This document shows positions 90 to 9,214 of a stretch of DNA of 16,740 nucleotides, one piece after another. Location: assembly GCF_003334385.1 (NCBI RefSeq), contig NZ_QOWN01000063.1; one strand, given 5' to 3'. Numbering within the stretch: position 1 is the first letter of the stretch; each line of letters starts with the position of its first letter. The notes under the pieces are model-generated. The model saw only the letters and a list, made by a program, of their open reading frames with translations, ran no database searches and was not told where the DNA came from. A program made the position numbers and the translations under genes. Origin of the DNA: Escherichia coli (lineage in GTDB: Bacteria > Pseudomonadota > Gammaproteobacteria > Enterobacterales > Enterobacteriaceae).

Positions 90-143
90 TGCAGTTATTC
101 GGCTCAGATGGCATGATCCCGGATTTTTACAGGGTTATTTCTC

Positions 144-698
144 ATGCTTATTGGCTATGTACGTGTGTCAACAAATGACCAGAACACAGATCTACAACGT
201 AATGCGCTGAACTGTGCAGGATGCGAGCTGATTTTTGAAGACAAGATAAGCGGTACAAAGTCCGAAAGGCCGGGACTGAAAAAACTGCTCAGGACATTAT
301 CGGCAGGTGACACTCTGGTTGTCTGGAAACTGGATCGGCTGGGGCGCAGTATGCGGCATCTGGTCATTCTGGTTGAGGAGTTGCGCGAACGTGGCGTTAA
401 TTTTCGCAGCCTGACGGATGCTATTGATACCAGTACCCCAATGGGGCGCTTTTTCTTTCATGTGATGGGGGCCCTGGCTGAAATGGAACGAGAACTGATT
501 GTTGAACGAACAAAAGCTGGACTGGAAGCTGCTCGCGCACAGGGACGAATTGGTGGACGTCGTCCCAAACTTACACCAGAACAATGGGCGCAGGCCGGAC
601 GATTAATTGCAGCAGGAATTCCTCGCCAGAAGGTGGCGATCATCTATGATGTTGGTGTATCGACACTGTATAAGAAGTTTCCGGCCGGAGATAAATGA
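144..698 (+). CDS. pin: Serine recombinase, Pin/Gin/Hin/Cin-family DNA invertase (184 aa)
   Basis: ATG at 144. N-terminal catalytic motif MLIGYVRVSTNDQ with the nucleophilic Ser, a resolvase/invertase core (DTLVVWKLDRLGRS) and a C-terminal HTH (VAIIYDVGVSTLYKK). Length and sequence are closely similar to PinE/Gin as recalled. Confidence 0.9.
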   Translation: MLIGYVRVSTNDQNTDLQRNALNCAGCELIFEDKISGTKSERPGLKKLLRTLSAGDTLVVWKLDRLGRSMRHLVILVEELRERGVNFRSLTDAIDTSTPMGRFFFHVMGALAEMERELIVERTKAGLEAARAQGRIGGRRPKLTPEQWAQAGRLIAAGIPRQKVAIIYDVGVSTLYKKFPAGDK

Positions 699-700
699 AA

Positions 701-742
701 CCGTAGCACGTCGTATGCAAGATCGTGCTGCGGTTTATGCTT
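701..742. terminator. Hairpin between convergent pin and GIY-YIG genes (putative bidirectional rho-independent terminator)
   Basis: 10-bp stem CCGTAGCACG (701-710) pairing with CGTGCTGCGG (724-733), including one G-U pair, around a 13-nt loop. It is followed by TTTATGCTT on the + strand and by a T-rich run (complement of 690-700) on the - strand. Confidence 0.45.
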
Positions 743-755
743 ACCACTTGAAGAT

Positions 756-1625
<870 letters not shown>

Positions 1626-1709
1626 CTAACCCTTTGAATTTACATAGCGCAAAAAGATACCTTTCCTCATAATGTGAGCTAATTTTATGTTTCGTTTGAT
1701 GATCGGGTC

Positions 1710-1770
1710 GGTCTCGAAAACCGGAGTAGGGGCAACTCTACCGGGGGTTCAAATCCCCCTCTCTCCGCCA
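1710..1770 (+). pseudogene. tRNA-Ser(CGA) 3' fragment (serU-like; anticodon arm, long variable arm, T-arm, acceptor 3' strand and CCA), att-remnant-like
   Basis: GGTCTCGAAAACCGGAGTAGGGGCAACTCTACCGGGGGTTCAAATCCCCCTCTCTCCGCCA matches the 3' two-thirds of a class II tRNA-Ser with anticodon CGA. No 5' acceptor strand (GGAGAGA) is present upstream, so it is a fragment, not a gene. Confidence 0.6.
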
Positions 1771-2352
1771 CTTTATCAATGACTTATCTCCTGACTTCCC
1801 GCCTTGCTTTTCCTAAACAGAACAATCGTAGAATATTCTTGAAGGGTTAGATCGTCACTGTTTTCTGTTCGATACTGTGACATTCAGCACTTGATTCGCT
1901 ATGGATCTGACAGGAAGGTTTTGAGCGAAAATCTGCAGTTATTCAGTCGTTTTCTTATCGGTCACCATTATTCTTTTAGACATTGATCCTACAAAGCTGC
2001 CGCAAAGTTGGTGGTGGGAACTGAAGTTGCGTAGAGAAGGGGTCAATACCCGGAGGCAAACATGGGCTGGCAAAAGTGTAGCGGCATTAGGCGCAGCTAT
2101 TTAGCCTAGTTATGTTTTATGAAAACTTGATATCATATAAGTGTCTTACTTATTGGCTGTAAATAAGTTTTTCCTAAGGAATTGTTTCTTGAGTATCATT
2201 TGTAACTGTAACGGAATTTATAATCCTTTGCTTTATTGTTACGGTATTTTTTATCACACCCTATTTTTAGTGGTTTTTTATACTGAAGTTTGGCAAAGTG
2301 AACTTTATATACATATACTTCATCCTGGTTTCAGTTAAATTGGGTGGATGAT

Positions 2353-3096
2353 ATGGCAACTACATGTTCAGTTATATTGATTTTGGAGTCCTTTGATGTT
2401 TATTTCGGAAAAGAGAGTGTGTTTCTGGAGAGAGGTTCATCTGTACTTGTCGACTCTAGCTCTAGAGATTTTTTCCTGACATATCCTGAAAGAGTGATAG
2501 TGGCGGATTTTGGCGCTGAGTTTATTAGTCGCTATTTGAAAGCTAATAACTTAAGGGATATTTCTGATTGTAGGGAATATCCATCTTATTTAAAAATAAA
2601 CTTTGCTGACTTCAGTTTAATTAAAGGATTAATTAGTTGGGCTAATCACTGTGCTGAATACATAGAAATTTTTGATGAGTCTATTGCTTTTACATGTCTC
2701 TCTGCATTTTCTTCTGAAAAACAATTTGGAGTATTTCTGTTTGGATGTTTGAAAAGCACAGGGGCTAAAGTTAAAACGATTATTCATACGGATTTATCTG
2801 CACCATGGCGTCTTAAGGATATATCATCAAGATTATATCTCAGCGAAAGTTTACTAAAGAGGAAATTGAAAGAAGAGGGGGTATCATTCAGTAAGATCAT
2901 ACTTGATGAGAGGATGCAAATGGCTGAATATTTACTCAGCACTCGTTGTTATCCTATTAGTAAAGTAGCTAAGGTCTGTGGTTATGCCAGTGTCTCATAC
3001 TTTACTTATGTATTTAGACGTTATTTTGGTGTTTCTCCAAGTCAATACTCTCAGAGGAGTTCAGAAAGTAAAATTCTTACTCACCAGGGAATCTGA
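2353..3096 (+). CDS. AraC/XylS-family transcriptional regulator (Rns/AggR/ToxT-like size, about 247 aa) in AT-rich DNA
   Basis: C-terminal double HTH typical of AraC family (WRLKDISSRLYLSESLLKRKLKEEGVSFSKI...VAKVCGYASVSYFTYVFRRYFGVSPSQY). Strongly AT-rich codon usage unlike the flanking core genes. The ORF track starts at GTG 2344; the first ATG is at 2353 with a GGGTGG purine tract upstream. Confidence 0.75.
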   Translation: MATTCSVILILESFDVYFGKESVFLERGSSVLVDSSSRDFFLTYPERVIVADFGAEFISRYLKANNLRDISDCREYPSYLKINFADFSLIKGLISWANHCAEYIEIFDESIAFTCLSAFSSEKQFGVFLFGCLKSTGAKVKTIIHTDLSAPWRLKDISSRLYLSESLLKRKLKEEGVSFSKIILDERMQMAEYLLSTRCYPISKVAKVCGYASVSYFTYVFRRYFGVSPSQYSQRSSESKILTHQGI

Positions 3097-3100
3097 TCAT

Positions 3101-3600
3101 TGTTCTTGCCCCCTTATTTCCAGACAGGGGGTGTATCTTAAGTTAACGTTACCCGCTGACGTCGATATTCTCGCGGAGAGCGATAACCCAACGCACTGTG
3201 CGGATGGTGTTCATTGTAATGTTCGATCGCCACTGCAAGATTATGCAATGCCGTTCTTACATTCGGTTTCGGCATGAACGCGATGTAGTCTTCCTTCATC
3301 GTTTTCACGAACCTTTCTGCAATTCCATTACTCTGAGGACTGCTGATTGCCGTTGTGCAGGGCTCCAGATTCAACTCTCTGGCGAACTGCCGTGTTTCAT
3401 GCGCTCTATACGCTGAACCGTTATCTGTCAGCCACTGGATGGACTGTTCCGGTACTTTATCGCCGAAGCGTTTTTCTATCGCTCCTAACATGACATCCTG
3501 CACTGTCGCTTTATCGTAACCTCCCGTGCTTGCGGCCCAGTCTATGGCTTCACGATCGCAACAGTCCAGGGCGATTCATCTGGGCCAATCCTCGCTCATA
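3101..3600 (-). mobile_element. Truncated IS3-family (IS2-group) insertion sequence remnant
   Basis: Terminal sequence TGTTCTTGCCCCCTTATTTCCAGACAGG at 3101-3128 resembles the IS2 inverted-repeat end (TGGATTTGCCCCTATATTTCCAGACATC as recalled). It is followed by the C-terminal part of an IS2 InsD-like transposase. The inner boundary is uncertain and no second terminal repeat was identified. Confidence 0.65.
3138..3575 (-). pseudogene. IS2 InsD-like (IS3 family OrfB) transposase, C-terminal fragment only
   Basis: Translation ...[31 protein letters not shown]...[51 protein letters not shown]...[18 protein letters not shown] has the DDE-core C-terminal signature of IS2-type transposases. The frame is closed by a stop at 3576-3578; the N-terminal half and the OrfA gene are absent. 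Confidence 0.7.
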
Positions 3601-3850
3601 ACAGGCATTCACTTCAGTCATGGCAGAAAGGTATGCATGCTGGAGAAGTCGTGAAAGAAAAGAAGACTGCTGCGCCGTTTGTCGTCACGTTTATCTTCAT
3701 TGGCTATGCAAGTCGTAATACAAGGTGGGACAAAACTGAGACACATAAGGCCTCGCAATGGCTTGCAAGGCTTTACATGTTTTGATGTGGTGGGACGTGT
3801 GAGCGCAGTGTTGATGGGGTAATGCTTTGAATTAGAAGCGGATTCTTATA

Positions 3851-3895
3851 ATTCGTAATGCGAAGGTCGTAGGTTCGACTCCTATTATCGCACCA
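3851..3895 (+). pseudogene. ptwF: tRNA-Thr(CGU) 3' fragment (thrW-like; corresponds to the ptwF pseudo-tRNA of K-12), island right-end att remnant
   Basis: ATTCGTAATGCGAAGGTCGTAGGTTCGACTCCTATTATCG-CACCA matches tRNA-Thr from the anticodon loop (CGT) to CCA with one G missing near the 3' end. No 5' half is present. It lies immediately before the core yagP-pao genes. Confidence 0.7.
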
Positions 3896-4021
3896 TTAAA
3901 ATCAAAGAGTTACCCCATATTTAAATACACCACGTTTCCTCCTGTGCCGTATTTGTGCCATTGTAACCTTGGCAATTCATCAAAATACTGTTCTGACATC
4001 AGGCAGTGCAGGTGCAGACAT

Positions 4022-4432
4022 TTAAGCCAATTGCTGCCGCCATTCTTTGACGTAGTCAATCAGGGCGCGGAGCTTTGGTGCAATATTGCGACGCTGTGGG
4101 AAATACAGATAGAAGCCCGGAAATTGTGGAAGAAAGTCATCAAGCAGCGATACAAGCTTACCGCTTTCAATATATGGCCTGAAAGTTTCCTGAGTGGCAA
4201 TTGTTATTCCTCCGCCGGCAAGAGCCAGCCTCAACATCAGACGCAGATCATTAGTCGTAATCTGCGGTTCAATCGCAAGGTCGAAAGTTCTCCCGTTTTC
4301 TTCAAATGGCCAGCGATAAGGCGCAACCTCCGGGGACTGACGCCAGCCGATACACTTATGGGTATTTCCCCCGGAGGCGAGAAAGCGCTCTCCACGCCCG
4401 GCCGCAAGGATCAGGACGACGGGGGCAGGCAT
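4022..4432 (-). pseudogene. yagP: LysR-family regulator remnant, C-terminal effector-binding portion only (136 aa)
   Basis: Translation from the internal ATG at 4432 gives 136 aa with a LysR C-terminal domain signature (...GGGITIATQETFRPYIESGKLVSLLDDFLPQFPGFYLYFPQRRNIAPKLRALIDYV). No HTH domain is present. Its 5' end overlaps the paoD stop region (4411-4432). Position and length match K-12 yagP. Confidence 0.6.
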
Positions 4433-5367
4433 GAATCCTCCTCCTGATGGAGACGTACAGAGGCGACTTCTGCCAGCACGGAGAGTGCCAGAGTATGCGC
4501 ATCCCGGGCTTTGGGGAATATCCCGACGGGTGCCCGGATTTGCGTTGTTTCCTCCCTGGACCATCCCAGCTCGTGGAGCTTTTGCAGACGTAACGTGTGG
4601 GTTCGATAGCTGCCCAATGCGCCGAGATAAAAGGGTTTTGCTTCTCGCGCGGCCTGCAACACTGGCAGCTCCCGGTTGAGATCATGGCACAGCAAAATGA
4701 CCGCCGTATCGGTATCGATCTGAGCGCTGGCTGAGGCCGGAAAAAGATCGAAGATATGGCTGTCATAGCCTGTGGCTGCTGCAAGACTCGCGGTTGCCTG
4801 CGCCTCAAGAGAACGTCCGTAAATCATCAGCCTGACGCATGGCCTGAACCCCACCTCAAAGCCATTGAGATTCCAGCCCGTCCGGGTTTGCGTGGGCAGG
4901 CACACCAGCGATTGTGCTTGCGGATCGTAGCGCAGCCCCACCGGTTTTCTCTGTTCCAGGCGGTTCAGCACGGCGAGCAGAGGCTGTGCCGAGCGTAGTT
5001 TATGGAGCGTCAGCGTGATCCCACCGCCGCAGGGCAGAACGATGTCAAACCACGGCGAACCTTCGCCATAGCGAATTTCGCGATCGCGGCCTGAGCCCAT
5101 CATCTCCAGCGCTTCAAAAGCGGCAGCGGCCTCCACGCAGCCGCCAGAGACAAAACCGCAGTAACGACCATCTTCGCGCACCACCATCTGCGCCCCGAGC
5201 GGGCGCGCCGCGCCGCCGCGTATCTCCACCAGCGTCACCAGCACCGCTCCTTTACCGGACATTAGCGCCTCTACGGCGAAGCGCAGAATGGTCCGGTGGT
5301 CATCGGTGAGAAACGCCTGCTCTGGCTTATGCCAGTGTTCGTCTTTGTCAAAAAGCGGGTATGACAT
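4411..5367 (-). CDS. paoD: Molybdenum cofactor insertion chaperone, XdhC family (318 aa)
   Basis: ATG at 5365-5367 with a GGAGGA Shine-Dalgarno sequence 4-9 nt upstream. 318 aa, last gene after paoC. Length and position match K-12 PaoD (YagQ). Confidence 0.9.
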   Translation of the reverse strand: MSYPLFDKDEHWHKPEQAFLTDDHRTILRFAVEALMSGKGAVLVTLVEIRGGAARPLGAQMVVREDGRYCGFVSGGCVEAAAAFEALEMMGSGRDREIRYGEGSPWFDIVLPCGGGITLTLHKLRSAQPLLAVLNRLEQRKPVGLRYDPQAQSLVCLPTQTRTGWNLNGFEVGFRPCVRLMIYGRSLEAQATASLAAATGYDSHIFDLFPASASAQIDTDTAVILLCHDLNRELPVLQAAREAKPFYLGALGSYRTHTLRLQKLHELGWSREETTQIRAPVGIFPKARDAHTLALSVLAEVASVRLHQEEDSCLPPSS

Positions 5368-5376
5368 TGTTCCTCC

Positions 5377-7575
5377 TTAAACCACATCCGGCAGCTTATC
5401 GAGCAGCTTATCCAGAGTGATGGGATAATCCCGTACCCGAATACCGGTGGCGTTATACACCGCGTTGGCGATAGCCGCGCTCACGCCGCACAGGCCCAGC
5501 TCACCGACACCTTTGGCCTTCATCGGGGAGGATATGGGGTCGGTATCATCCAGGAAAATCACCTCCTGTTTTGGGATATCCGCATGAACCGGCACCTCAT
5601 ACCCCGCCATATCGTGATTAACGAAGTAGCCCAAACGGTCATCCACCGCCAGCTCCTCCATCAGTGCCGCGCCCATGCCCATAGTCATTGCGCCAATGAC
5701 CTGGCTGCGCGCAGTTTTCGGATTCAGGATGCGTCCTGCAGCACACACAGCGAGCATACGCCGGACCCGAACTTCTCCCGTCGCGCTATGCACGCCGACC
5801 TCCACAAAATGCCCGGCAAAGGTCGACTGCTGGTACTCTTTGCTCAGTGTTCCGAATTCAATGCTCTCTTCCGCTGTCAGTCTGCCGCCTGCGGTGGCTT
5901 CATGTAGCGTGGCGCTTCGGGTACCGTTGGTAATCTTGCCGTCGGCAAACTGCGACTGCTCAGGATCAAACCCGACTGCCGAGGCAATCATTTCGCGAAG
6001 CTTCATACAGGCGGCGTAAACGCCGGAGGTGGAGGTATTCGCGCCCCATTGTCCACCAGAACCCGCAGAAACCGGGAAACTGGAATCGCCGAGGTGAACC
6101 GCAACCTGCTCCAGCGGTACGCCAAGCATTTCCGCTGCCGTCTGGGCCAGAATGGTGTAGCTGCCGGTGCCAATGTCGGTCATGTCCGTTTCTACGGTAA
6201 CGGTGCCGTTTTGTTCGAGGTGAACCCGAGCACCCGATTTTTCCAGCAGATTATTGCGAAAGCCCGCCGCAACACCGTGGCCGACTAGCCACTCCCCGTC
6301 GCGCACCTGTCCGGGTGTGGCGTTGCGCTGCTTCCAGCCAAATTTATCCGCTCCGGTGCGCAAGCACTCGATAAGCTGACGGCGAGAGAAGCAGCGCGTC
6401 GGGTCGGCGGGGTCAACCTGAGTGTCATTCAGGATGCGAAACTCGACGGGATCGATGCCCGCTTTTTCCGCCAGTTCGTCGATCGCGATTTCGAGCGCCA
6501 TCAGACCGGGGGCTTCGCCGGGCGCACGCATGGCGTTCCCTTCCGGCAAATCAAGCGTGGCGAGCCGCAGGCCGGTATGACGATTCGCCCCGGCGTAGAG
6601 TAATTCGCTTTGCTGTACCGCCGTTTCCGGCGTGCCGCCGGGCAGGTTTCCAGACCAGCTTTCATGTGAGATAGCGGTGATTTTCCCGCTCTGGTCGGCA
6701 CCGATACGCAAGTGCTGAAGGGTGGCGGGGCGGTGCGTGGTGTTATTGGGAATAGAGGGGCGGGGGAGCATCACTTTAACCGGACGTTTCACCGCTCGGG
6801 CGGCGAGGGCCGCCAGCAGCGCATCGCTTCTCAGGAACAGCTTGCCGCCAAACCCTCCGCCGATATACGGGGAGATAATACGCACATTCTCCACGGGAAC
6901 TTTCAGCGTTTTTGCCAGATCGGTGCGGCACCAGTCAATCATCTGATTTGAGGTCCAGAGGGTAAGCTTATTTCCATCCCAGACGGCCATCGAGGCATGC
7001 GGCTCCATCGCCATATGGCTCTGGTCCGGGGTCGTGTAGGTAGCATCAATCTTCACCGCAGCGGAGGTGAAAGCCCCGTCAAAGTCACCGACGTTTTTGT
7101 CGGGCGTGTCTTCCGGCGGCTGATTGACGGCCTGTTTTTCGTCCGCCAGGGAGTAAGCTCCTTTATTACGGCGATAGTGTGCCTGCACCAGCGAGGCCGC
7201 CGCTCGCGCCTGTTCGAAGGTCTCGGCCACTACCAGCGCAATGGCCTGATGATAGTGCTCAATAGTGGGGCCGCCTAACAGCCTGGCGGTGTTTTTGTCG
7301 CCTTTGCCGAGTGCCCCGGCGTTACTGGCGGTAATGACAGCCAGTACGCCCGGCGCTTTTTGCGCGGCGTCCGTATCAAGGGCGGTGAGGCGTCCTTTGG
7401 CAATGGCGGAACCGACGATATAGCCATAGGCGGCGTTGGGGGCTTCTTCATGCCATTCGTAGGCGTAGCGTGCCGTGCCGGTAGTTTTCAGCGGTCCGTC
7501 GATGCGGTCATGGGGACGACCGACAACCTTCAGCTGATCGATCGGGTTTTCCCCTGCGGGTTTATCAAATTTCAT
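5377..7575 (-). CDS. paoC: Aldehyde oxidoreductase molybdopterin-binding large subunit (732 aa)
   Basis: 732-aa xanthine dehydrogenase-family molybdenum subunit ([21 protein letters not shown]...; GGGFGGK motif). Start ATG overlaps the paoB stop as ATGA at 7572-7575. Confidence 0.95.
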
Positions 7576-8528
7576 GCCTGTGCCCTCGCTTCAGCCAGTA
7601 CGGAGGCAAGCGTTCGCTTCGCCAACAGGAGTTTAAAGGTGTTTTCAGCGGTGGGATGGGCGCTGGCGAACAGCGTGTCATATACGGCCTGCGCCCCCTG
7701 GGATAGCTGAGCATCCGCAGCCTCAATGCGCCAGGGCTTATGTGCTACTCCGCCCAGCGCGACGCGCCCGCTGCCGTCAGGCTGAATAATCGCCGCGACC
7801 GATACCAGGGCAAAGGCGTAGGAGGCGCGATCGCGCACCTTACGGTAGATATGTTTTCCGCCGAGCGGTGGAGGTAACGTCACCGCAACGATAAGCTCAC
7901 CGGGAAGCAGGGCGGTTTCAATGTGCGGCGTTTTTCCCGGAGGGTGATAAAAATCAGCCAGTGTGATACTGCGAGTCTTTCCCTCCGGCGTGATGGTTTC
8001 CACCACCGCATCCAGCAACCGCATTGCGACCGCCATATCGCTCGGATGGGTGGCAATGCAGGCTTCGCTTACGCCTACCACCGCGTGCTGACGGCTAAAG
8101 CCTTCAAGCGCCGCGCAGCCGCTCCCGGGCAGGCGCTTATTGCAGGGCTGATTGGTGTCGTAAAAATAGGGGCAGCGCGTGCGCTGGAGCAGATTACCTG
8201 CGGTGGTTGCCTGATTACGTAACTGACCAGACGCGCCAGCGAGCAGGGCGCGGGAGAGTACCGCGTAATCACGACGCACGCGCTCGTGAGCCGCCAGGTC
8301 GGTGTTCCGTACCAGTGCGCCGATGCGCAGCCCACCCGCGTCGGTCACTTCAATCTTATCGAGCCCGAGGCCGTTCACATCGATAAGGTGGGTGGGCGTT
8401 TCAATTTCCAGCTTCATCAGGTCCAGCAGATTGGTCCCGCCCGCGATAAATTTTGCGCCGGGTACGCGCTGAGCGCTAAGTGCCGCCTCGGCTGGGGTAT
8501 TCACTCGTTCATAGGTAAACGCCTTCAT
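7572..8528 (-). CDS. paoB: Aldehyde oxidoreductase FAD-binding medium subunit (318 aa)
   Basis: 318-aa CO dehydrogenase/XDH medium-subunit-like protein with an FAD-binding fold ([11 protein letters not shown]) and a Cys-rich insert ([11 protein letters not shown]...GSGC). Start overlaps the paoA stop as ATGA at 8525-8528. Confidence 0.95.
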
Positions 8529-9214
8529 GATTTTATCTCCCCCGCAGCATCTTCAATGGCGGCAAGGATGTTAGCGTATGCACCACAGCGACAGATGTTG
8601 CCGCTCATACGTTCACGGATCTCATCGGCAGTTGTTTCTGGAGCGGAAACCAAATCGACCGTGACGTGACTGGGAATGCCGTCCTGAATCTCTTTTAGCA
8701 CCGCTACTGATGAGCAAATTTGCCCGGAGGTGCAGTAGCCGCACTGGAAGCCATCATGCTTGATAAAGGCCGCCTGCATGGGGTGAAGATTATCTGGCGA
8801 ACCCAGGCCTTCAATGGTGGTGATCTCGGCCCCCTGATGCATGACTGCAAGCGTCAGGCAGGCATTAAGCCTGCGACCATTGACCAGCACGGTACAGGCT
8901 CCGCACTGTCCGTGATCGCAACCTTTCTTGGTACCGATCAAATGCAGATTTTCACGCAAAGTGTCCAGTAGCGTGGTTCGGGTATCCACCTCAAGCTGCT
9001 CGGTTTTGCCGTTCACCTTCAGTGTCAGGGGCATTATCTCTGGCGCGGGTGTAGCTGCCGGAACGCTTGCCGCCAGCGTAGAATGAGGATAAACCACGGC
9101 GGTCGCCGCTGTTGCGGCGCTCACTTTAATCAGATCGCGACGGGTCAAACTTAAATCGTGCGGCTCGTGCTTCCCAACCCGATTATCTTCGGGGTATTCG
9201 CCTTGGTTGCTCAT
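8525..9214 (-). CDS. paoA: Aldehyde oxidoreductase iron-sulfur small subunit with twin-arginine (Tat) signal peptide (229 aa)
   Basis: N-terminal Tat motif [17 protein letters not shown], and two [2Fe-2S] Cys motifs ([19 protein letters not shown]...CRCGAY). GGAGG Shine-Dalgarno sequence upstream of ATG 9212-9214. Confidence 0.95.

Follow-up and report, generated by a model that had tools for sequence, protein, structure and literature searches.

The window, i.e., the whole stretch of 16,740 nucleotides analyzed here, is Escherichia coli chromosomal DNA with matches of 99-100% in many strains. Its minus strand carries, at the end of paoD, an open reading frame of 136 codons plus stop (4022-4432) that is contained within a larger open frame of 180 codons (4022-4564) and whose translation reads MPAPVVLILAAGRGERFLASGGNTHKCIGWRQSPEV…KEWRQQLA* (Table 1). 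The start codon of this ORF (ATG, 4430-4432) falls inside the last 22 nt of paoD, an overlap that the first-pass annotation of the window had put at about 22 nt and that is exactly 22 nt. In E. coli K-12 MG1655, the same ORF, at 297,381-297,791, is annotated as a CDS under the name [quoted passage not shown] and is found between intF, at the end of the cryptic prophage CP4-6, and paoD. K-12 yagP and the window ORF are 99.8% identical over 411 nt and differ by one amino acid (R16C in K-12); they occupy the same locus, in the same place between the thrW/CP4-6 end and paoD, with no substantive difference. In other RefSeq genomes (most strains), the equivalent of positions 4022-4360 is recorded as a pseudogene, [quoted passage not shown]

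As a feature, the remnant is known, being annotated either as yagP or as a RefSeq pseudogene. These annotations are silent on the origin of its first 24-26 codons from another gene and on the deletion that caused the truncation. Literature searches on “yagP” returned incidental mentions in lists and no account of the origin of the ORF, all matches to “b0282” were unrelated catalogue numbers, and no description of the exact deletion, of its frequency or of the two-parent chimeric origin was found in the searchable literature. Mapping of the parent segments divides the ORF product into three parts: residues 1-24 go back to a MocA-like nucleotidyltransferase gene, residues 25-26 (His-Lys) stem from a junction microhomology common to both parents, and residues 27-136 correspond to residues 190-299 of a LysR-type regulator.

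Table 1. Features of the window at and around the chimeric ORF.
Feature	Position	Strand	Basis
Partial thrW tRNA-Thr copy (positions 31-70)	3851..3890	+	blastn-short with thrW from locus L094, 40/40 identity
Chimeric 136-codon ORF, yagP (b0282) of E. coli K-12	4022..4432	-	ORF list and K-12 annotation
LysR remnant, codons 188-299 and stop of a 299-aa regulator	4022..4360	-	97.9% DNA identity to parent; Pfam; RefSeq pseudogene coordinates
Deletion junction, 5-bp microhomology TTATG	4356..4360		Overlapping blastn segments
Fifth pao-operon gene remnant, codons 1-24 of a MocA/MobA-like NTP transferase (MPAPVVLILAAGRGERFLASGGNT)	4361..4432	-	Synteny and tblastn
paoD, XdhC-family molybdenum cofactor insertion chaperone	4411..5367	-	ORF list, RefSeq annotations
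Shine-Dalgarno-like run AGGAGGAGGA, 3 nt upstream of ATG	4436..4445	-	Read directly from sequence

On the left flank, ARAGORN found no complete tRNA in the window, and the partial thrW copy is an att-type scar left at thrW by the integration of an island, which lies to the left. Island-free strains have the order proA, thrW, LysR remnant, paoD. The island left of the scar (~140-3600) bears a pinE-like invertase gene, a GIY-YIG (LEM-3-like) gene, an AraC-family regulator gene (2344-3096) and an IS3-family integrase-core fragment that is a pseudogene (3138-3503). It is unlike the CP4-6 end (intF) of K-12 and unlike the island of strain 14EC001, in which 901 bp around the chimeric ORF are 100% identical to the window.

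Intact relatives of the LysR-type fragment

Positions 4022-4360 of the window share 97.9% DNA identity with the final 339 nt of an intact 900-nt LysR gene found in other E. coli strains, the matching segment of the strain 132 locus (L003, 15320-15658) being the 3′ end of the gene for WP_000687183.1, and this resemblance is far above chance. In a Pfam search, the 180-aa open frame gave a single domain, LysR_substrate (PF03466, E=3.2e-14), at model positions 103-207 of 209, and HTH_1 (PF00126) was not detected in it. In the intact orthologue, HTH_1 is found at residues 5-64 (E=1.7e-21) and LysR_substrate covers model positions 4-207. By its DNA identity and its LysR_substrate match, the window ORF thus descends from a LysR-family gene. 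The effector-binding domain occupies residues 90-294 of the full protein, and the window retains only the C-terminal half of it: a complete LysR_substrate domain (about 205 residues) is not encoded, and the HTH domain, the linker and some 100 residues at the start of the effector domain are missing.

The first-pass annotation had described a minus-strand gene encoding only the C-terminal effector-binding part of a LysR-type regulator, which is what the Pfam result bears out. Its view of the protein as truncated holds; its extent of LysR sequence needs refinement, the LysR-derived part being confined to residues 25-136 and covering only the C-terminal half of the effector domain. No full-length LysR protein with a different start is encoded at the locus, so the claim of a remnant stands, and the examination of full-length homologues and their neighborhoods, which had been proposed as a check, revealed 299-aa orthologues divergent from a 240-aa SDR gene.

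Residues 188-299 of the full-length E. coli proteins WP_000687183.1 and WP_000687184.1 (O157-type strains) are colinear with ORF residues 25-136, over which the strain 132 protein and the remnant differ by 2 amino acids. Both proteins, as well as the 299-aa orthologues from Enterobacter cloacae, Pantoea ananatis and Klebsiella pneumoniae, keep the residues 1-187 that are missing in the window. Close homologues elsewhere (Enterobacter cloacae, Pantoea, Klebsiella pneumoniae, Leclercia, Salmonella) are 299 aa long, consist of HTH_1 and LysR_substrate and show 85-91% identity; among the best 120 homologues of the parent, 118 measure 295-303 aa and the remaining two 282 and 288 aa. The best named NCBIfam model for the intact regulator is YafC, with 161.6 bits against a cutoff of 470, and the regulator thus has no characterised LysR-type equivalog.

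The LysR orthologue and a 240-aa SDR gene are transcribed away from each other, with a 98-bp spacer between them, both in E. coli and in the three loci inspected from Enterobacter, Pantoea and Klebsiella. The wider neighborhoods of the pairs from these three other genera are unrelated, and none of them adjoins pao. LysR-family regulators are usually arranged divergently from their target genes. Because of this usual arrangement, the intact regulator most likely controlled the divergent SDR gene, not pao. The promoter region and the divergent SDR gene that are present at the intact locus are lost in the window, where the ORF has no promoter of its own divergent from a regulated gene: both the 98-bp spacer and the SDR gene lie within the deletion. 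The suggestion that the fragment is a decayed regulator of the ancestral locus is accordingly right as to a decayed LysR regulator and wrong as to pao, since the regulator is paired with the SDR gene and outside E. coli is never found beside pao.

The pairs in other genera are located at 7360-9900 in Klebsiella (L011 and L012), 7482-9900 in Enterobacter (L007) and 8180-9900 in Pantoea (L009). Two small ORFs, one of them coding for an Atu4866-domain protein, lie alongside the Enterobacter and Klebsiella pairs, and the Klebsiella pair sits in the middle of a lambdoid prophage. The LysR-SDR pair behaves like a small mobile cargo module.

A gene following paoD in other Enterobacteriaceae

The source of the first codons of the ORF emerged from the comparison of 80 paoD-homologue loci taken from species-representative genomes. 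In 24 of the 80 loci, from other Enterobacteriaceae, a gene of ~184 aa (180-190) begins at, or overlapping, the paoD stop; the genera represented include Pluralibacter, Leclercia, Enterobacter, Franconibacter, Silvania, Siccibacter, Citrobacter, Dryocola, Cedecea, Atlantibacter and Kosakonia. The N-terminus of the gene product reads MP(A/S)(S/P)(I/V)V(L/I)ILAAG(R/K)GERFLASG…THKL…, and the E. coli peptide is identical to nine sampled N-termini at 14-23 of 26 positions (20 or more in seven). The Pluralibacter protein, which matches PF12804 NTP_transf_3 (E=2.6e-23), TIGR03310 MocA/YgfJ (E=7.5e-24) and PucB (E=1.3e-11), aligns to the window by tblastn over its residues 1-26 (81%, E=2.6e-9), and its gene has the same 22-nt overlap with paoD (offset -21). 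The E. coli stub, which amounts to 26 codons when the microhomology is counted, includes the LAAGxGxR nucleotide-binding motif. A full nucleotidyltransferase domain (about 160-190 residues) is not encoded, since only residues 1-26 match the Pluralibacter homologue; nevertheless, the same position, the same overlap, the shared motif and the 24 syntenic homologues establish descent from the gene that follows paoD. A MocA-like gene lies at L013 (9936-10490) and right after the paoD match at loci L015, L017, L018, L022, L023, L025 and others. One of these, L018 (titled Chryseobacterium sp. 18061), is an Enterobacteriaceae-type pao locus with a PaoD 66% identical to that of E. coli and an adjacent MocA-like gene; its organism label is probably wrong, or the assembly contaminated.

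E. coli strains without the deletion retain the stub as well. Window positions 4361-4432 are identical to the region at and just past the paoD stop in PA11, one such strain, and in these strains codons 1-27 (…GGNTHKL) are kept and homology then stops. At positions 4361-4363, the window and PA11 have GGG and the O157-type strain 132 has GG, a 1-nt difference by which the strain 132 stub is frameshifted to a 26-codon ORF ending …NTIN*.

One could argue that the likeness of these 26 residues to MocA is the coincidence of a glycine-rich motif in an out-of-frame or intergenic ORF. Searched alone, the N-terminal peptide of 26-30 aa matched just the IspD model in NCBIfam (E=0.2-0.26) and nothing among PDB sequences, and Pfam did not report NTP_transf_3 for the 180-aa open frame, as such a coincidence would have it. 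However, the same starting peptide continues into a 180-190-aa PF12804 protein in 24 syntenic Enterobacteriaceae pao loci, the Pluralibacter gene shares the 22-nt overlap, and homology ends abruptly past codon 27 in the E. coli strains without the deletion. The synteny comparison of paoD loci led to the rejection of a coincidental motif, which we consider highly improbable.

In the E. coli literature, paoD is the last gene of paoABCD (PMC3909100, PMC2997495). An xdhC-family chaperone gene is paired with a mocA-type gene in Bacillus subtilis (pucA-pucB) and in Arthrobacter (xdhC-mocA), and the cofactor of E. coli PaoC, in its cytosine dinucleotide form, is a product of the unlinked MocA (PMC2997495). 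MocA (YgfJ)/PucB-type genes that follow an xdhC-family chaperone gene likewise follow paoD in other Enterobacteriaceae, whereas the window keeps the start, the Shine-Dalgarno sequence and the first 24-26 codons, so that only the N-terminal nucleotide-binding motif survives. Judging from this synteny, the pao operon of E. coli once had a fifth gene, coding for a presumably dedicated molybdopterin nucleotidyltransferase, that was lost earlier.

Breakpoints, polarity and distribution of the deletion

In the first similarity search, the matches of some strains broke at window positions ~4356-4360, with one side leading to a full LysR gene and the other to paoD only. Comparison of the window with the strain 132 locus by blastn resolved two segments with a 5-nt overlap: 3880-4360, i.e., the 3′ 339 nt of LysR and its downstream flank, corresponds to L003rc 2202-2682, and 4356-13510, which starts ~50 bp downstream of the paoD stop, corresponds to L003rc 8812-18001. 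With strain 132 as reference, the window is without 6,134 bp, and TTATG is found at both deletion ends. The order in strain 132, in window orientation, is the 299-aa LysR gene, the SDR oxidoreductase gene (divergent from it, with the 98-bp spacer), a 92-aa hypothetical ORF, a ykgR fragment, a second LysR gene, an alpha/beta-hydrolase gene, an MFS transporter gene, and then paoD, paoC, paoB and paoA. PA11, WP7-S18-ESBL-09 and NCTC10444 have the same pieces as the strain 132 interval, and the intact 299-aa LysR gene divergent from the SDR oxidoreductase gene is present in both the O157-type strain 132 and NCTC10444.

The DNA removed comprises LysR codons 1-187 with the promoter region, the SDR gene, the small ORF and the ykgR fragment, as well as the second LysR gene, the alpha/beta-hydrolase gene and the MFS transporter gene. 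The first-pass annotation had placed the missing N-terminus where the 3′ end of paoD now stands. This proved mistaken: the N-terminus was not replaced by paoD but lost in one 6,134-bp deletion that also took five other genes and the ykgR fragment, and the start codon overlapping paoD was inherited from the lost MocA-like nucleotidyltransferase gene. The same annotation had also seen a possible scar of the acquisition or rearrangement of the pao operon; a rearrangement scar it is, and acquisition is excluded as its cause since strains with the intact and with the deleted configuration alike possess pao.

On the coding strand, TTATG reads CATAA. In both parents, these bases make up a His codon and the first two positions of a Lys codon (the nucleotidyltransferase stub has …NT-HK-L…, LysR has …VN-HK-CIGW…), so that the join is in frame. 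Inspection of the junction revealed no IS or att structures at the deletion ends, and a 5-bp microhomology in such a setting fits illegitimate recombination, either by slippage or microhomology-mediated.

A 120-nt probe spanning the junction matched 2,685 of 5,426 complete E. coli genomes (coverage of at least 80%; 98-100% identity among the matches listed). The complete LysR-SDR pair is present in 389 of the same genomes and any match to it in 3,302; most of the 3,302 beyond the 389 have the LysR tail only, and these tails start at the same boundary among the matches listed. The pair is unmatched in about 2,100 of the 5,426 genomes. That the identical junction recurs in about half of the species argues for one old deletion as its source.

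As for polarity, the long form is ancestral, as full-length orthologues with their divergent SDR partner exist in other genera. The opposite polarity, i.e., an ancestral short form from which the long O157-type configuration arose by insertion of a ~6.1-kb cassette, would agree with the short form being the commoner one (2,685 genomes against 389 with the full pair). Yet an insertion cannot make a complete, colinear 299-aa LysR gene that has SDR-paired orthologues in several genera. Moreover, the intact strains keep one stub codon more (Leu27) than the fused form, the ends share just 5 bp with no IS or att structures, and the LysR alignment displays no sharp identity break at codon 188. Insertion was rejected, being effectively refuted by the intact orthologues in other genera, and deserves next to no credence.

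The same interval has suffered other losses. In T-HYM1 (L098, 3174-3404), the LysR gene has been truncated independently and differently, with a 231-nt tail abutting a ykgR fragment and with the second LysR, hydrolase and MFS genes still there, which makes for more than one loss of the LysR-SDR module. In an O157:H7 strain, the same LysR gene contains an inserted IS. The thrW-pao interval is deletion-prone, the LysR-SDR module having been lost in at least three different ways. In the 80 loci of other species, none of the LysR, SDR, hydrolase and second LysR genes was found within 9 kb of paoD, and MFS homologues occur within that distance in only three xanthomonad-type loci. The paoD-thrW cassette is thus specific to E. 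coli among the genomes sampled. The three MFS homologues (L038, L046 and L069; Frateuria and Pseudoxanthomonas) show 63-66% identity and lie a few kb from the paoD homologue, and their location hints at a possible functional link between the MFS transporter and the aldehyde oxidoreductase.

With an intact allele in conspecifics and in related species, a colinear remnant and defined breakpoints, the feature has the makings of a deletion-derived pseudogene, and there is a strong probability that it is a chimera without function, left behind when two losses followed one another beside the pao operon. Both parents and both breakpoints of this chimera, the polarity of the event and its distribution are documented by the comparisons above. 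In the older step, a MocA-like molybdopterin nucleotidyltransferase gene, whose start originally overlapped the paoD stop, would have been cut off past codon 27, a state found in all pao-bearing E. coli examined. Illegitimate recombination at the 5-bp CATAA would then have deleted 6,134 bp in the lineage or lineages that now account for about half of the sequenced E. coli, K-12 among them, with one end in the MocA-like stub and the other at LysR codon 188, several genes away near thrW. This second step would have removed the promoter, the HTH and half of the effector domain of the regulator, along with the SDR gene that it most likely regulated. By a chance in-frame join, the strong ribosome-binding site and the ATG of the stub would now open a 136-codon ORF.

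Expression, variation and significance of yagP

The Shine-Dalgarno run, a legacy of the nucleotidyltransferase gene, sits in the last codons of paoD (…EED…); read on the minus strand, 4433-4449 is CATCAGGAGGAGGATTC, followed by ATG. A promoter/terminator scan of 3700-4700 detected nothing above shuffled expectation inside the feature and no terminator-like site between paoD and the end of the ORF. The LysR promoter region was in the deleted DNA, and the remnant has no promoter of its own. The ATG and Shine-Dalgarno of the stub, with no terminator ahead of the ORF end, suggest carriage on the pao transcript: the ORF is probably co-transcribed with paoABCD by read-through and may be translated by coupling to paoD. 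Indeed, yagP mRNA was reported to be up-regulated under carbon limitation (PMC6390033), a 2D gel yielded a weak peptide-mass-fingerprint match to YagP (3 peptides, score 43; PMC3342100), and the Keio ΔyagP strain appears in a list of epetraborole hypersusceptibility (PMC12457515). None of these reports shows a function; a polar effect or functionless expression would explain them all.

The LysR part of the product also speaks to what it could do. Effector domains of the LysR family have a two-lobed architecture. A complete two-lobed effector-binding fold would not be able to form from the ORF product, which is probably non-functional because it has no DNA-binding domain and only half an effector domain.

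Nine alleles were sampled for comparison, seven of the remnant and two intact. The 136-codon frame is open in all seven remnant alleles, with no indels or frameshifts, which at about 2% divergence is expected even without selection. Across the LysR part of the nine alleles, 9 codons have amino-acid-changing variants and 7 have silent ones (small counts); with nonsynonymous and synonymous sites at about 3.3 to 1, neutral evolution would give a ratio similar to or higher than 9:7. A comparison of the two main groups of remnant alleles gave a pN/pS of about 0.38, a value based on few substitutions. Variants also occur in the motif derived from the nucleotidyltransferase (LAAGRGER region), namely R16C in K-12, E15K and G21E in C6, and S20F in LR-46. 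The two intact alleles differ from each other by 4 synonymous and 2 nonsynonymous changes. These small numbers are at most suggestive of relaxed constraint on the remnant. At 90%, the 136-aa protein forms a cluster of 502 members, and those listed are from E. coli, save one 640-bp contig labelled Vibrio. Being essentially limited to E. coli, this cluster is not a conserved stand-alone family of small proteins, in keeping with the fragment that the first-pass annotation had recognized.

An alternative is that the 136-aa chimera is an expressed and selectively retained new protein, the fifth cistron of pao, in which the LysR effector fragment would have a ligand, PaoD or another LysR-type regulator as its binding partner, thereby modulating something. 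Such a protein would make sense of the strong Shine-Dalgarno sequence and of the ATG overlapping paoD with the geometry of the intact nucleotidyltransferase gene (as in Pluralibacter, offset -21), of the absence of a terminator from paoD to the end of the ORF, of a frame open in seven of seven sampled remnant alleles, of the transcript (PMC6390033) and weak proteomic (PMC3342100) reports, and of the status of yagP as a CDS, not a pseudogene, in K-12 RefSeq. It fits poorly, however, with the lack of an HTH, of a linker helix and of the initial ~100 effector-domain residues, with the frequency of amino-acid-changing variants among the sampled alleles, with the same LysR gene being otherwise truncated, or absent, in other lineages, with a protein cluster confined to E. 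coli and with the pseudogene call of the RefSeq pipeline in other strains. Retention of a new protein is therefore very improbable. In its fullest form, K-12-type strains would translate a 15-kDa fifth cistron of paoABCD with an acquired role, a young chimeric gene that we regard as likewise very improbable. If it were true, this role, e.g., binding of an aldehyde-related ligand or interference with another LysR-family regulator, would explain the open frame in about half of all E. coli.

Returning to the chimeric pseudogene, the details of the deletion and of the chimera are routine genome decay and hold no surprise for the specialist. Their first implication is one of annotation hygiene: yagP is listed as a protein-coding gene of the “putative LysR family” and as such features in knockout collections and in lists of regulators. 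As yagP consists of two fused gene stubs without a DNA-binding domain, its matches in screens are to be read as polar or neutral effects. The second implication concerns the pao operon itself, of which an intact MocA-like fifth gene (about 184 aa) persists in many Enterobacteriaceae. The loss of this gene fits the reliance of E. coli on the unlinked MocA for the maturation of PaoABC.
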